Below, piece after piece: positions 38,460 to 53,818 of a DNA stretch of 64,000 bases. Below the pieces are notes generated by a model that did not search any database, was not told where the DNA came from, and saw nothing but the letters and a program-made list of their open reading frames with translations. Source of the DNA: an uncultured delta proteobacterium (GTDB taxonomy: Bacteria > Desulfobacterota > Binatia > UBA9968); NCBI GenBank assembly GCA_963737905.1, contig CAVTUQ010000031.1, forward strand, positions 16,971-80,970. Direction: 5' to 3'. How positions within the stretch are numbered: position 1 is the stretch's first letter; each line of letters begins with the position of its first letter. The position numbers were made by a program, and so were the translations under genes.

Positions 38460-39002
38460 ATGATTGTTTTGAGTCCCGAAGGGAAAGCCAAAACTTCTGC
38501 AACCCGTGTCGCCGCGCTGCCGAGGTTCGCAGATCTGAATGGGAAAGTCGTCGGGCTGCTGGACAACAGCAAGCCCAATGCAGACAAACTCGGGGAGCGA
38601 TTCGCTCAACTGTTAAGAGAGCGATTGGATGTCGGAAAGGTTGTCACGCGGCGCAAGATCAGCGCGCAGCAGGGTGCCCCCAAGGAGTATTTAGACGAGC
38701 TCGCGTCCCAGGCTGATTTTATTCTCAGTGGCCTTGGCGATTGAGGGTCCTGCACGTCGTGGAGTATCCACGACTCGATAGAGCTACAAAAGCGCGGCAG
38801 GTTTGCCGTGACGTTAATTACCCACGCTTTCGATGCTTTGGCCAAATCAGAGAAAGAGGCATTTGGCGCGCCGGATCATCCAGTGCTGGTCGTCCAGCAC
38901 CCTATCGGCACGGTGAAGGTGGAAGAAGTCAACAAACGCGCCGATGCTGCTTTCGATCATCTGGTGGAACTCTTGGTCGAGCAAAAGACAGGTAAAGATT
39001 AG
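38460..39002 (+). CDS. UGSC-family selenoprotein, copy 1 (180 aa; Sec at TGA 38742-38744)
   Basis: ORFs 38460..38744 and 38808..39002 are in one frame. Reading through TGA gives ...FILSGLGD-U-GSCTSWSIHDSIELQKRGRFAVTLITHAF... A SECIS-like hairpin follows, and a paralog shows the same arrangement. Confidence 0.9.
38756..38774 (+). promoter_or_regulatory. Putative bacterial SECIS element
   Basis: Perfect 8-bp stem GTCGTGGA-GTA-TCCACGAC starting 11 nt after the TGA; loop begins with G. Confidence 0.8.
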
Positions 39003-39011
39003 GTGCAAGTA

Positions 39012-39091
39012 CAGGTGTCAGGTTTCGGGTTTCAGGCGTCGCAGTAAAGTTTTGAAGTTGAACTGAAACCTGACACCCGACACCTGAAACC
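39012..39091. repeat. Inverted pair of 7-nt tandem arrays (caggtgt/tttcagg ... cctgaaa/cctgaca)
   Basis: caggtgtcaggtttcgggtttcag (39012-35) matches the reverse complement of ctgaaacctgacacccgacacctg (39063-86) at 21/24. Confidence 0.8.
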
Positions 39092-39113
39092 TCGAAGATT
39101 GAACGAGAGCAAC

Positions 39114-40166
39114 ATGGACGCAAGTGCAATGCAATCTGACCGAATCGAAGTTGCCGACGATCTTTGGGCCGTAAATGCCTTCTTCGAAGAGAAGGGTTGG
39201 ACGGACGGCTTGCCGATCATTCCTCCCACGGAAGAGCGGGTGGGGCAGATGATCGCGACGGGGAAACGCAATCCGCAGGACGTGATCGGGGTTGTGCCGC
39301 CTCGCTGGGCGCCGGCGACTGTAGAAAAGATCGCTATCAACGCGGTAATGGCGGGCTGCTTGCCGGAATATATGCCCGTCCTTATCGCGGCGGCGGAGGC
39401 TTTGACCGATCCCAAGCTGAATCTATACGCGCTGCAAGCGACCACGGGCGGACCGGCGATCATGTTGATCGTAAACGGTCCGATCAGAAAACAAATCAAT
39501 ATCAATGGTGGTTCCAATGTTCTCGGGGAAGGCTGGCGCGCCAACGCGACCATCGGCCGTTGCATTCGTCTCATTCAACGGAATATCGGCGGTTCCTATC
39601 CCGGAACCACATGCAAGGCAACACTAGGCTGGCCAGGTAAATACAGTCTCTGCGTTGCGGAAAACGAAGAGGCAAGTCCGTGGGCGCCGCTCCACGTCGA
39701 GCGCGGATTCGCCGCAGGCACGAGCACGGTGACGGCTATCAGCGCGGATAGCTCGGTGCGCGCGTCGGATCTCGACAGCACCAAGGGTGAAGGGATACTC
39801 AGCAATTTCGCCCGCCGGATGGACGGACCGTCGGGACCGGAAGCGATCATGGTGATCTGCCCGGAGCATGCGAAGATTATCGCCGGTGACGGTTTTAGCA
39901 AGGCCGATGTGAAGAAGTTTGTTTGGGAGCGGGCGGGCCATCGCATGAGTGAAGTGCCGGAGGAGACGTTCAACCAGAGGGTAAAGCGCCGGCCGGATTT
40001 GAAGTTGACTCGCGACAGCGTGATTCCAGTTACCGATACGCCGGAAGATATTATCGTCGTGGTAGCTGGCGGTGACGGCTCCCAGTCGCAGTATATCCAC
40101 GTCTGGGGGCAGAGCACGCCGGAAGGCGGTTCGACGCGGTCGGTGACGAAGGCGATACAGCTTTAG
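39114..40166 (+). CDS. Uncharacterised UGSC-partner protein, copy 1 (~350 aa)
   Basis: WTDGLPIIPPT, ATVEKIAINAVMAGCLPEY, ANATIGR, GWPGKY; strongly similar to 50587..51654. Start codon uncertain (39099, 39114 or 39129). Confidence 0.85.
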   Translation: MDASAMQSDRIEVADDLWAVNAFFEEKGWTDGLPIIPPTEERVGQMIATGKRNPQDVIGVVPPRWAPATVEKIAINAVMAGCLPEYMPVLIAAAEALTDPKLNLYALQATTGGPAIMLIVNGPIRKQININGGSNVLGEGWRANATIGRCIRLIQRNIGGSYPGTTCKATLGWPGKYSLCVAENEEASPWAPLHVERGFAAGTSTVTAISADSSVRASDLDSTKGEGILSNFARRMDGPSGPEAIMVICPEHAKIIAGDGFSKADVKKFVWERAGHRMSEVPEETFNQRVKRRPDLKLTRDSVIPVTDTPEDIIVVVAGGDGSQSQYIHVWGQSTPEGGSTRSVTKAIQL

Positions 40167-51654: not shown

Positions 51655-51754
51655 ATGTTTGGAGTATGGAGTAAATGGAGATTGGAGTAATGGAGTCGTG
51701 GAAAGGTGGCAGATTGACCATGGAGAGTCGAGGATCGAGGATGGAGGATTGAAG

Positions 51755-52757
51755 ATGGTGCACCGAGGGATATTCCGAAGGTCACTAGTTATGACCGTAA
51801 GCGTCCTGCTCATTGCGCTTCTTGCGTTCAAAACTTTCGCGCAGGAAAAAGTTAAATTTCCGATCGGAGAGTCGTCGAAGACCTTGAGCTACGGCCCGCT
51901 TTGGGTCGCTGCGAAGATGGGATTTTTCGAGCGCGAGGGCTTGGAAGTGCCGATCGTCACCATGCGCGGCTCGCCGTTGACCATTCAAGCGTTGACCGCC
52001 GATTCCATCTACGTTGCCAATGCGACGGTGGACACACTCATCAGCGCCTATGAGAGAGGCGCCGATATCACCATGATCGGCGGGCTGATCAACGGTCTCG
52101 GATTGAGCATGATCGGCGGCAAATCATATAAAACCTACGCCGATCTGCGGGGCACCACCATCGGCACGCAAACGCTGACTTCCGGCACCGGCTTCGCCTT
52201 GCGGCTGGTGTTGAAGGTCGCACGGCCTGGAGTATCCACGGGATTACAAACTGCTCAACATCGGCAGCGCTCCCGATCGCTATCAGGCGCTGACTTCGGG
52301 GCAAATCTCCTCAGCTCCGGTGGGCGTGCCACTGGATCTGGTGGCCAAGCAACAGGGTTTCAACATCATCGGCTATTTCGCGGATGACCAGCCCAACTTT
52401 CAGTTCAATGTCTACATCGTTAAGCGTTCCTGGGCCGAGAAAAACCGGCCGCTGGTGGTTCGCTTCATGAAAGCGATGGCTTCGACAATGCGCTGGATGA
52501 TGGACAATCGCGAGGCCGCTTGCGCCTACTTGTCGAAGGAAATGGTGATCAGCCTCGAGCACTGCCGCTATGCCTCGGATTACAACTGGAAGAACCGCAT
52601 CTGGGACCGCAACGCCGATTTGAATGTCGAAGGCGTGCGCACCTTGATCAAAATCACCGCCGAGCAAGGGATTCTTAAAGAGCCTTTGCCGCAGCCTGCG
52701 AAGTACATCGATCAGAGCTACCTCAAGCAGGCGCTGGCGGAGATGGGTAAAAGGTAA
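51755..52757 (+). CDS. NMT1/SsuA-type ABC substrate-binding protein (frameshift near 52218)
   Basis: N-part GPLWVAAKMGFFEREGL...LRLVLK continues in another frame as HGLEYPRDYKLLNIG...YIDQSYLKQAL; collinear with 59686..60672. Confidence 0.82.
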
Positions 52758-52792
52758 GGGTGGGGCGTAGGAGTTACCGGTAAGGAGCAAGT

Positions 52793-53818
52793 ATGAAACA
52801 GCTAACGAGCATGGCCGGTTCGATTGTTTTGTTGGGGATTTTCATGGCGGCTCCGAATTGTGTCGCGCAGGATAAGATGAGGCTGGGGCTCAGCTCGGTG
52901 AGTGCCCTGCACAGCGCGGTTTGGATTGCCGAGCAAAAGGGATTGTTTCGCAAACACGGCATCGAGGCGGAGGTGATCGTCACGGGTCAAGGCGCCGCCG
53001 CGGGAATCAGCGCATTGCTTGCCAACGATATTCAGATGACCAGCTCGGCGGGAGACGCGCTCGTCAGTGCGGCGTTGCACGGTGGCGAAACCGTTATGAT
53101 TGCGGGCGTCGTCAATAAGGGGCTGCAGCGGATTATGGTCCGGCCGGAGATCAAGACGCCGGCGGATCTCAAGGGGAAAAAAGTAGGCGTAACGCGGATC
53201 GGCGCGGTTTCTCATTCGGTTCTTCTAATGATACTGAGACGCTGGAACATGAGCCCGACGGATGTCCAGATCATGCAGGTAGGGTCGTCGCCGAACATGC
53301 TGGCCAGCTTGGACAAGGGCGGCCTTGACGCGGCAGTCATAACGGTTCCTTCCATGTTCGTCGCCGAAGACCGAGGCTATAAGGTGTTGCTTGATCTCGC
53401 CGATACAGACATCTATTACCTGCAGACTATGATCGCCACCACGCGGAGCTACCTCAAAGGCAATCGTGAAAAAGCGATAAGATTTCTCAAGGGCTATTTG
53501 GAGGGCATCGCCTTTTTCATGCAAAACCGAAGAGAGAGTCTGGAAGTCGTCAAGAAAAAGCTCAGAATCAGCGTGGAGGGAGAACGCAACCTTGAGAGGT
53601 CCTTTGATCTTCTCAGCGCAAAATACTACGAGCAGATGCCCTATCCGTCTTTGCGGGGCGTCGAAACAGTGATCGGATTTTTAGAAAAAGATAACCCCAA
53701 GGCCAAAGGCGCGGATCCTAAATCTTTTGTCGACGACAGCCTGCTTCGGGAGATCGATGCGAGCGGCTTCGTTAAGGGTACCTGGATCAGCGGTAGGGGC
53801 CGAAAGGCCGGCCTATAG
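52793..53818 (+). CDS. NMT1/SsuA-type ABC substrate-binding protein
   Basis: Signal peptide; WIAEQKGLFRKHGIE, DLKGKKVGVTR, FVDDSLLREIDASGFV. The last residues may be frameshifted. Confidence 0.88.
   Translation: MKQLTSMAGSIVLLGIFMAAPNCVAQDKMRLGLSSVSALHSAVWIAEQKGLFRKHGIEAEVIVTGQGAAAGISALLANDIQMTSSAGDALVSAALHGGETVMIAGVVNKGLQRIMVRPEIKTPADLKGKKVGVTRIGAVSHSVLLMILRRWNMSPTDVQIMQVGSSPNMLASLDKGGLDAAVITVPSMFVAEDRGYKVLLDLADTDIYYLQTMIATTRSYLKGNREKAIRFLKGYLEGIAFFMQNRRESLEVVKKKLRISVEGERNLERSFDLLSAKYYEQMPYPSLRGVETVIGFLEKDNPKAKGADPKSFVDDSLLREIDASGFVKGTWISGRGRKAGL

Follow-up and report, generated by a model that had tools for sequence, protein, structure and literature searches.

The 64,000-nucleotide stretch of DNA analysed here (the window; positions 16,971 to 80,970 of contig CAVTUQ010000031.1 in assembly GCA_963737905.1, from an uncultured delta proteobacterium) carries two modules, about 11 kb apart, in which a gene for a UGSC selenoprotein with an in-frame TGA codon is accompanied by a gene for a second protein of ~350 aa, termed the partner. 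UGSC and the partner are probably the two halves of one selenol/thiol-dependent reductase, which is encoded by adjacent genes or as one fused protein, and the best reading is that this enzyme is related to the Stickland reductases on the selenoprotein side only. Four lines of sequence data carry this reading: the linkage of the two genes, the signals for selenocysteine (Sec) decoding, the homology of UGSC with the Sec module of GrdB, and the fusions of the partner to electron-input domains. From these we infer a physical contact between UGSC and the partner, which residue attacks what, and the substrate.

In the favoured mechanism, UGSC would supply the Sec of the U-G-S-C motif, in a module of common ancestry with the Sec module of GrdB/PrdB, and the partner, which is unrelated to GrdE/PrdA, would supply the rest of the active site, with Cys87 at its centre together with the invariant residues Arg154 and Glu188. 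The partner would hold the substrate, which would be reduced or reductively cleaved through the chemistry of Sec95 and Cys87, and the selenenylsulfide thus formed (Sec95-Cys98 or Sec95-Cys87) would be re-reduced by NADPH-thioredoxin reductase (TrxR), ferredoxin:thioredoxin reductase (FTR) or a CxxC redoxin. That the modules act on different small-molecule substrates is suggested by the divergent C-terminal halves of the partners, by the number of paralogues in a genome and by catabolic and transport neighbours that vary between loci; in this genome the substrates would probably be delivered by exported NMT1/SsuA-type binding proteins encoded directly downstream. An earlier reading of the bare sequence (the first-pass annotation) had proposed a two-subunit redox enzyme composed of a Sec/Cys catalytic subunit and a substrate-binding subunit; one redox-active, selenium-dependent unit is retained from this proposal, but the partner may be more than a substrate binder.

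Linkage of UGSC and the partner

The partner belongs to a large family without a Pfam model, which comprises 5573 clusters at 50% identity (E <= 1e-3) among 1.84 billion representatives. Fusions were counted in the best 150 of these 5573 representatives, with UGSC parts detected by phmmer/hmmsearch, and adjacency was counted in the 80 best genome loci for the partner and separately in 80 metagenome loci that hold 90 partner domains, with UGSC scored as adjoining when on the same strand within 300 nt in the genome loci and within 600 nt in the metagenome loci. A UGSC domain is found within 6 kb of the partner in 70 of the 80 genome loci, and 64 of the 80 have an adjoining UGSC (50 upstream, 16 downstream, 2 both). 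The other 16 loci comprise four in which UGSC lies 677-988 nt upstream with something in between, one with a degenerate UGSC, one with UGSC on the opposite strand and ten without UGSC, one of them at a contig end. In the metagenome loci, 74 of the 90 partner domains have an adjoining UGSC, which lies upstream in 55 and only downstream in 19, and 10 of the 16 unpaired domains are at contig ends.

UGSC resides in the same protein as the partner in 51 of the 150 representatives. The census consists of 84 proteins with the partner alone, 14 full UGSC-partner fusions with UGSC at the N-terminus, 32 that begin just past the UGSC Sec codon and represent Sec-type fusions cut by gene callers, 4 in the reverse order (partner-UGSC) that end with the pre-Sec part of UGSC, 1 UGSC-partner-FTR protein, 6 partner-partner tandems and 9 with other extensions. 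P0153, which is of the Cys type, and P0259 are natural UGSC-partner fusions. The first-pass annotation, which had pointed to natural fusions and conserved adjacency as the features to look for, had also held that gene callers fragment the system; both stand-alone and fused forms are indeed routinely cut at the TGA codon.

Within the genome that contains the window, each of the three UGSC genes is followed by a partner gene, and the third pair, on contig C19, lies in a single reading frame as UGSC-linker-partner. The genome-wide count of paralogues, which the first-pass annotation had left to be made, is exactly three UGSC and three partner genes with every pair adjoining, and a partner profile run against the six-frame translation of this genome finds nothing past the three copies. 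In the fused gene on C19 (L001:7853-9541), the last ~40 codons depart from the family consensus and the 3' end overlaps the next open reading frame, which encodes an NMT1 binding protein (9382-10527); the 3' region of this gene is likely to contain a frameshift or an assembly error.

Of 151 genomes sampled from the phylum, 18 carry UGSC, and the same 18 carry the partner. The UGSC/partner copy numbers of these carriers are 3/3, 1/1, 1/1, 6/6, 1/1, 2/2, 2/2, 14/13 and 2/2 in the first nine and 1/1, 3/4, 1/1, 2/2, 1/1, 1/1, 9/11, 4/4 and 1/1 in the remaining nine; this co-occurrence serves as a description and not as a statistical test, as kin genomes are not independent. Because the two proteins are fused in both orders, adjoin each other and co-occur with matching copy numbers, the data support the view that UGSC and the partner form one functional unit.

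The taxonomic spread of the partner loci is very wide and includes one archaeon. Judged by their record titles, the hosts are mostly uncultured and from environmental metagenomes (groundwater, fen, soil), and no Clostridia are listed. Cultured carriers include Robertmurraya sp. 2P01SA (L027), with a fused Sec form, and Natrialba asiatica DSM 12278 (L038), with a Cys form, and Hyphomonas neptunium is named in PMC1976440. L026, L031, L053 and L055 (Poribacteria) and L086 have shorter partners (~320-347 aa) that lack both a fused redox domain and a UGSC within 6 kb; a reductant for these proteins, if they use one, is not among the neighbouring genes.

UGSC as a known family and its selenocysteine codon

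UGSC1 (38460..39002, forward strand, 180 aa, motif D-U-G-S-C) scores 157.5 bits against PF24696 (4.8e-46) and 129.5 bits against NF041046 ("UGSC family (seleno)protein"), and is above both cut-offs (25 and 125 bits, respectively). UGSC2 (49550..50089, forward strand, 179 aa, motif A-U-G-S-C) scores 137.3 bits (7.5e-40) against PF24696 and is below the cut-off of NF041046 (101.3 vs 125). Both proteins are thus members of the UGSC family. The Sec codon of UGSC1 is codon 95, an in-frame TGA at 38742..38744 that aligns with TGA in 62 of the 66 adjoining UGSC domains elsewhere, and that of UGSC2 is codon 96 (49835..49837), where the frame is likewise read through the TGA. The U/C-G-S-C motif is present in 55 of these 66 domains of other genomes, and the Sec position is TGA in 62, TGC in 3 and outside a truncated match in 1.

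A selenocysteine insertion sequence (SECIS) hairpin is located at +15 to +33 relative to the TGA. In UGSC1 it occupies 38756..38774, begins 14 nt past the TGA and has an 8-bp stem and a 3-nt GUA loop; in UGSC2 it occupies 49849..49867, and both hairpins are called from folding and covariation. For the latter, 54 nt from the TGA were aligned in 74 UGSC genes, of which this genome contributes three and other loci 71. In the 8-bp stem, 91.6% of the alignment cells form pairs, with 30 double-sided changes vs 7.2 +/- 2.2 in shuffles; none of 500 shuffles reaches the observed value, and all slid controls are far below it. Additionally, a selD-selB-selA cluster is present in the same genome (C29:71024-75669), in which selA (606.9 bits), selB (409.8 bits) and selD (381.4 bits) are all above cut-off and selD carries an in-frame TGA of its own, consistent with a Sec-containing SelD.

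UGSC1 is also spanned, with its TGA intact, by RNA-library contigs of two runs from a single soil metatranscriptome study, which differ from it in 5 of 520 and 2 of 308 letters. These contigs leave 38300-42600 partly uncovered, carry no transcript ends or levels and may stem from carried-over DNA, so that they are no proof of transcription; as the TGA is unchanged in contigs independent of this assembly, it is not an assembly error of this genome. On these grounds, the TGA codons of UGSC are read as selenocysteine codons, a reading that is regarded as sound, and the selenium dependence claimed in the first-pass annotation is borne out by the covarying hairpin and the selD-selB-selA genes. An artefact, with TGA codons that are stops or sequencing mistakes and UGSC halves that are pieces of genes, has a negligible probability. 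Databases do hold many 99-140-aa fragments that end or start at the Sec codon, as this alternative has it, but the frame and the family profile are continuous through the TGA in the three paralogues and in 62 other loci, the hairpin covaries, the selA, selB and selD genes are present, the TGA is kept in contigs of independent runs, and TGC (Cys) occupies the Sec position in three loci. True stops are rejected on these grounds.

The first-pass annotation had ranked the module as its best candidate for an undescribed system; the selenoprotein itself is not undescribed, since it has Pfam and NCBIfam models and appears in papers of 2007, 2008 and 2026. A UGSC-containing protein was named as a selenoprotein of unknown function in 2007 (Zhang & Gladyshev, who also described the family in 2008; PMC1976440), and the Global Ocean Sampling (GOS) survey of 2008 counted 255 Sec and 21 Cys forms (PMC2398784, Table 2), which makes UGSC the fifth most abundant of 51 selenoprotein families in those data (PMC2398784). 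The same paper guesses a thioredoxin (Trx)-like fold for UGSC and prints a "UGSC/Unknown_1" fusion, whose Unknown_1 may be the present partner family (PMC2398784). A 2026 review keeps UGSC among the uncharacterised selenoproteins (PMC13188914). The passages covered in these three papers state no function, no obligate partner and no link to GrdB, and they contain neither co-occurrence statistics nor TrxR, FTR or redoxin fusions. No Trx-type Pfam family matches UGSC at E <= 10, sequence and profile searches of the PDB with UGSC and with the GrdB-like protein of this genome give no match, and a structural search of the ESM Atlas with the UGSC homologue P0301 returns UGSC clusters only.

Homology of UGSC with the Sec module of GrdB and PrdB

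Profile comparison reveals a remote homology between the C-terminal half of UGSC (~90 residues) and the module of GrdB/PrdB that bears the Sec. The genome contains five pairs of GrdE-like (PF09338) and GrdB-like (PF07355) genes, on contigs C34, C9, C28 and C38 (two copies). When a UGSC profile is searched against the 69,389 six-frame segments of the genome, the three UGSC copies come first and are followed by the five GrdB-like genes at ranks 4, 5, 6, 7 and 9 (E of 6.4e-4, 3e-3, 0.025, 0.22 and 1.0). In the alignments with the C34 and C9 copies and one C38 copy, Sec is aligned on Sec, and a strand-Sec-helix "ELEK-GIP-V" pattern is shared. Comparison of 110 UGSC sequences with nine GrdB-like sequences, drawn from four genomes of the phylum including this one, by hhalign gives a probability of 96.9% and an E of 1.5e-10 over 86 columns; a thinner first profile comparison gave 61%. 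In pairwise BLAST between UGSC and the GrdB-like proteins, UGSC3 alone is clearly matched, at 31% over 107 residues with a database of three sequences, and the N-terminal "G-LDN-KPNAD" of UGSC and "LITDGGLVPKGNPD" of GrdB are aligned by greedy extension at low confidence.

The frame of the GrdB-like copies on C34, C9, C38 and C28 runs through a TGA in "...ILTST-U-GTSTRSG..." or "ILTAT-U-GTGTRSG". The second C38 copy reaches the same Sec motif, and its sequence ends shortly past it. In the three full-length genes (C34, C9 and one C38 copy), the Sec motif has Ser where the relatives compared from the phylum have Cys (e.g., U-GTC-TRC-G in L169). The GrdE/GrdB-like pairs are at loci L002-L007 and L175-L178, and two of them look split. 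When PF07355 (347 positions) is compared with one GrdB-like gene (L002:1501-2778), the model ends one residue before the Sec and misses the ~80-residue Sec module. UGSC and GRDB are unlinked in ordinary scans, probably because PF07355 stops before this module.

D-proline reductase (PrdA/PrdB) and the GrdE/GrdB pair resemble the proposed enzyme of UGSC and its partner in being two-protein reductases with a small selenoprotein, in which the Sec is placed in a U-x-x-C/S motif after a β-strand and before a helix. In contrast, the pyruvoyl subunits of these enzymes are unrelated to the partner, the N-terminal half of UGSC aligns with GrdB/PrdB at low confidence only, and no equivalents of GrdA, GrdC or GrdD of glycine reductase are seen. 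Glycine reductase is re-reduced by the thioredoxin system. The loose analogy with Stickland reductases drawn in the first-pass annotation is therefore too weak for the selenoprotein, which has a homologous Sec module, and does not extend to the partner, which is unrelated to GrdE/PrdA.

As described in the part of PMC11229817 consulted, the 26-kDa subunit PrdB of D-proline reductase uses its Sec to attack the PrdA-bound substrate, and its variant U151C is inactive. The Sec:Cys ratios in the GOS data (PMC2398784, Table 2) are 235:110 for PrdB and 321:7,880 for Trx-like relays; the 255:21 of UGSC resembles the former, unlike the latter, and is counted in favour of a catalytic Sec.

The partner family and its invariant cysteine

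Eight positions are invariant in 75 stand-alone partners: Pro39, Gly86, Cys87, Gly127, Gly153, Arg154, Glu188 and Gly324. Cys185 is kept in at least 90% of these members and is lost in the forms with TrxR at the N-terminus and in most tandems, whereas Cys87 is kept in 31 of 31 TrxR fusions checked and in both halves of 10 of 10 tandems checked. Cys87 is thus the one cysteine that the family alignments indicate to be universal. It lies in the helix-break-helix motif NAVMAGC-P-EY, between two helix-like segments and with a Pro two residues on, as read by eye from the sequence.

Even with a limit of E <= 10, the two partners of the window give no match to a Pfam or NCBIfam family, and a Pfam scan of the 75 members at E <= 5 finds no family matched by more than one of them. 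No relative of the partner is found in the PDB, and a search of the ESM Atlas with the partner homologue P0034 returns only the partner's own clusters and no Pfam families. The partner profile has no similarity to the GrdE-like and GrdB-like proteins of this genome, with a probability of 0.1% against the five GrdE-like proteins. The first-pass annotation had cast the partner as the substrate-binding subunit; the invariant cysteine and the fusions to TrxR, FTR and redoxin domains described below fit a catalytic Cys enzyme at least as well.

The pair Gly86-Cys87 also raises the improbable alternative of a true Stickland-type enzyme, in which the partner would cleave itself at this bond to form an N-terminal pyruvoyl group that binds an amine, and the Sec of UGSC would attack the α-carbon. 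Gly86 and Cys87 are two of the eight invariant positions, pyruvoyl reductases cleave at Cys rather than Ser (PMC11229817, in the part consulted), UGSC is homologous to PrdB/GrdB, and the genome has five classical GrdE-like/GrdB-like pairs. However, the partner has no detectable similarity to PF09338 proteins, and the setting of Cys87, with its helix-like flanks and the Pro two residues on, is usual for a nucleophilic or redox Cys. Fusions in which a redoxin is the only other domain are also hard to fit to such cleavage, and no prdH-like maturation gene is seen, although none was searched for.

Fusions of the partner to electron-input domains

A census of the 91 partner relatives longer than 622 aa contains about 31 partner-TrxR and 5 TrxR-partner fusions, about 14 tandems, about 40 UGSC-partner proteins with further extensions (some of them FN3), one GNAT fusion and one glyoxalase fusion. 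The CxxC of TrxR is intact in 31 of 31 TrxR fusions checked; P0332 is an example of a protein with a fused TrxR. A ferredoxin:thioredoxin reductase catalytic β chain with CPC/CPC/CHC motifs is fused to the partner in P0235 and P0244, and an AhpC/TSA-redoxin domain with CxxC in P0267 and P0273; the AhpC/TSA domain of P0236 lacks the CxxC. An open reading frame in L069 encodes a CPTC-redoxin-partner fusion with no UGSC nearby. Separate genes follow a similar arrangement, with the order UGSC-partner-TrxR on one strand in L108 and L129 and a TrxR gene divergent from the UGSC-partner pair in L107. In the genome of the window, no TrxR-like gene lies beside the modules, and matches are found only on contigs C18 and C9. 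Taken together, the fusion architectures of the partner point to a thioredoxin-type relay as the electron source.

NTRC is a TrxR-Trx fusion, and AhpF is likewise a thioredoxin-reductase fusion protein. The TrxR fusions of the partner are similar to both in that the protein presumably reduced by TrxR is joined to it, on either side, and the CxxC of TrxR is intact. They differ in that the fused protein belongs to a 350-aa family with one invariant Cys and with no thioredoxin fold by any sequence test. FN3 domains are fused to UGSC-partner or partner proteins in P0394, P0396 and P0410 (metagenome-assembled genomes of Oscillospiraceae) and in P0384, P0386, P0390, P0397 and P0402, an odd setting for a presumed cytoplasmic redox enzyme.

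The half that acts on the substrate

The main uncertainty is which half touches the substrate. A catalytic Sec is favoured by the homology with PrdB/GrdB and by the extreme bias towards Sec, whereas a role of UGSC as dedicated reductant is favoured by its replacement by ordinary redoxins and by the invariant Cys that the partner itself has. The latter is the essence of a rather unlikely but plausible rival, a pure redox relay. Here the partner alone would be the enzyme, a reductase of the 1-Cys type in which every catalytic cycle oxidises Cys87 (with a sulfoxide, peroxide, disulfide or persulfide as substrate, for example), and UGSC would be a dedicated "selenoredoxin" that stays off the substrate. 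Cys87 is present without exception in the 75 stand-alone partners and in those of the checked fusion and tandem domains that extend over it, a CxxC redoxin stands in place of UGSC in some proteins, UGSC is missing in 10 of the 80 loci, and it is the partner and not UGSC to which TrxR and FTR are fused. The ESM Atlas also gives partner clusters the name "thioredoxin family protein", an automatic label and no test. A pure relay is harder to reconcile with the homology of UGSC to a module whose Sec attacks the substrate, with the nearly constant use of Sec over Cys (62 TGA to 3 TGC here, 255:21 in the GOS table), which is unlike relay selenoproteins, and with the presence of UGSC beside partner-TrxR in L108 and L129.

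Several observations weigh against the favoured reading of one selenol/thiol-dependent reductase. UGSC is absent within 6 kb in 10 genome loci, four Poribacteria records among them, and an ordinary CxxC redoxin domain can take its place; this agrees better with an exchangeable reductant than with a catalytic Sec that nothing could replace. Both redox residues are lost in some fused UGSC domains (P0179, P0133, P0185 and P0240). Neither GrdE/PrdA nor the N-terminal part of GrdB resembles the partner, so the Stickland parallel covers the selenoprotein half only, and PF07355 gives no match at E <= 10 with UGSC1, UGSC2 or three relatives. No tRNA-Sec is found in the assembly, which is 87% complete; the best Rfam match (46.6 vs 47 bits) is a tRNA-Leu. 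Finally, the 80 genome loci share no third conserved gene, the commonest neighbour family being TctC with 18 of 80, and the neighbours point to no single substrate.

Three results make the function of UGSC testable, namely an obligate partner with one invariant Cys, the common ancestry with GrdB/PrdB, and the wiring to TrxR, FTR or redoxin, and the downstream binding proteins offer a possible route to the substrate. The UGSC family and a UGSC fusion are already in print. The parts of the literature covered by the search do not contain the obligate pairing with a large unmodelled family, the TrxR, FTR and redoxin fusions or the homology with the Stickland Sec module. A wider and tentative proposal is that these proteins represent a widespread and so far unrecognised Stickland-like class of selenoenzymes outside the clostridia, in which a PrdB-type Sec module and a non-pyruvoyl, Cys-dependent substrate subunit, powered by NADPH-TrxR or ferredoxin-FTR, would carry out reductive C-N, C-O or C-S cleavage of many imported organic compounds in soil, groundwater and aquatic bacteria. 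If true, such a class would explain the rank of UGSC among the most abundant environmental selenoproteins.

Layout of the two modules

The same gene order is found twice, about 11 kb apart, as the first-pass annotation had reported. Module 1 is divergent from an aldo/keto reductase gene (37302-38282, reverse strand). A promoter-like TTGACA-18-TATAGT sequence (38392..38421, forward strand, 11 of 12 consensus matches) is located 39 nt 5' of UGSC1; the region contains 6 such sites vs a mean of 10 in shuffled sequence, and the site is a consensus match only. UGSC1 is followed on the forward strand by partner1 (P0002; 39099..40166), a 355-codon open reading frame with the invariant Cys87, whose start is likely the ATG at 39114 because the relatives are 350 aa. 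Downstream are genes for an exported NMT1/SsuA-type solute-binding protein with a signal peptide (40400..41398), the place of which after partner1 is kept in L144 and L120, and for an Amidohydro_2 protein (PF04909, 85 bits; 41417..42493) of a metal-dependent hydrolase/decarboxylase family, which has orthologues in the same two loci.

Module 2 is also on the forward strand. UGSC2 is separated from partner2 (P0003, 355 aa; 50587..51654) by a DUF559 gene (Vsr-like endonuclease fold, 141.3 bits; 50178..50552). This DUF559 insertion is kept in L120 (71% identity) and L009 (55%) and is absent from L021 and L013. Two binding-protein genes follow partner2, as had been noted before, but the first of them (NMT1 type, 51659..52757) is split by a frameshift near 52200, with the NMT1 match covering the N-terminal part only, and is a pseudogene or reflects an assembly error. 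The second (52793..53818) encodes an exported NMT1/SsuA-type solute-binding protein with a signal peptide and has orthologues after partner2 in L009 and L021. The signal peptides of both intact binding proteins were judged by eye.

Partner1 and partner2 are 46% identical overall, with 59% identity over residues 1-212 and 29% over residues 213-355, in agreement with the earlier remark that the C-terminal halves diverge; the DGLP-type, NATIGR and GWPGKY motifs quoted there are common to both. UGSC1 and UGSC2 share 38% identity. The two modules are old paralogues rather than a recent duplication. L144 keeps the amidohydrolase, aldo/keto reductase, UGSC1, partner1 and the first solute-binding protein at 85-92% identity, and in L120 and L009 module 1 is directly followed by UGSC2-DUF559-partner2. 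Because the modules abut in L120 and L009, the 7 kb between them in the window is read as an insertion relative to these loci. This spacer includes four tandem PF04392 (ABC_sub_bind) binding-protein genes (42917-47341), and a small DUF6883 gene (47536-47880) and a ribbon-helix-helix gene (48761-49069, reverse strand) lie 3' of the PF04392 block.

Gene neighbourhoods and binding proteins

The neighbour families in the 80 genome loci were named from one median-length member of each, scanned against Pfam. After the TctC binding proteins (18/80), the recurrent families are CoA-transferase III (11/80), MmgE/PrpD and enoyl-CoA hydratase (10/80 each), short-chain dehydrogenases/reductases (SDR; 9/80), thiamine pyrophosphate (TPP) enzymes (8/80), zinc-dependent alcohol dehydrogenases (Zn-ADH) and luciferase-like oxygenases (7/80 each), NMT1 binding proteins and SBP_bac_5 (5/80 each) and Amidohydro_2 (4/80). 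Binding proteins of three families are present in 28 of the 80 loci. The window carries the same neighbour families on both flanks of the modules.

These neighbourhoods bear on a further and highly improbable alternative, in which UGSC and the partner serve selenium or sulfur trafficking, or act as a general antioxidant pair, with no specific small-molecule substrate. Such a role would agree with the lack of conserved pathway neighbours, with the very wide taxonomic spread, an archaeon included, and with the published remarks, which in the passages covered say only "redox function". It would not account for genomes with as many as 14 paralogous pairs whose C-terminal halves diverge, for the recurrence of CoA-transferase III, MmgE/PrpD, enoyl-CoA hydratase and binding proteins at the frequencies given above, or for the exported binding protein after all three modules of this genome.

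An NMT1-type binding-protein gene lies directly 3' of each of these three modules. Three jackhmmer rounds find about 351 six-frame segments of the NMT1/SsuA family in the genome, or roughly one start per 38 kb per strand, so that the placement of such a gene within a few hundred bases of three out of three modules by chance is unlikely, as a rough estimate. The link between module and binding proteins drawn in the first-pass annotation thus holds for this lineage but is not general, with NMT1 proteins in 5 of the 80 loci. The NMT1/SsuA expansion in this genome is unusually large, and in the stretches inspected most copies are without adjoining permease genes.

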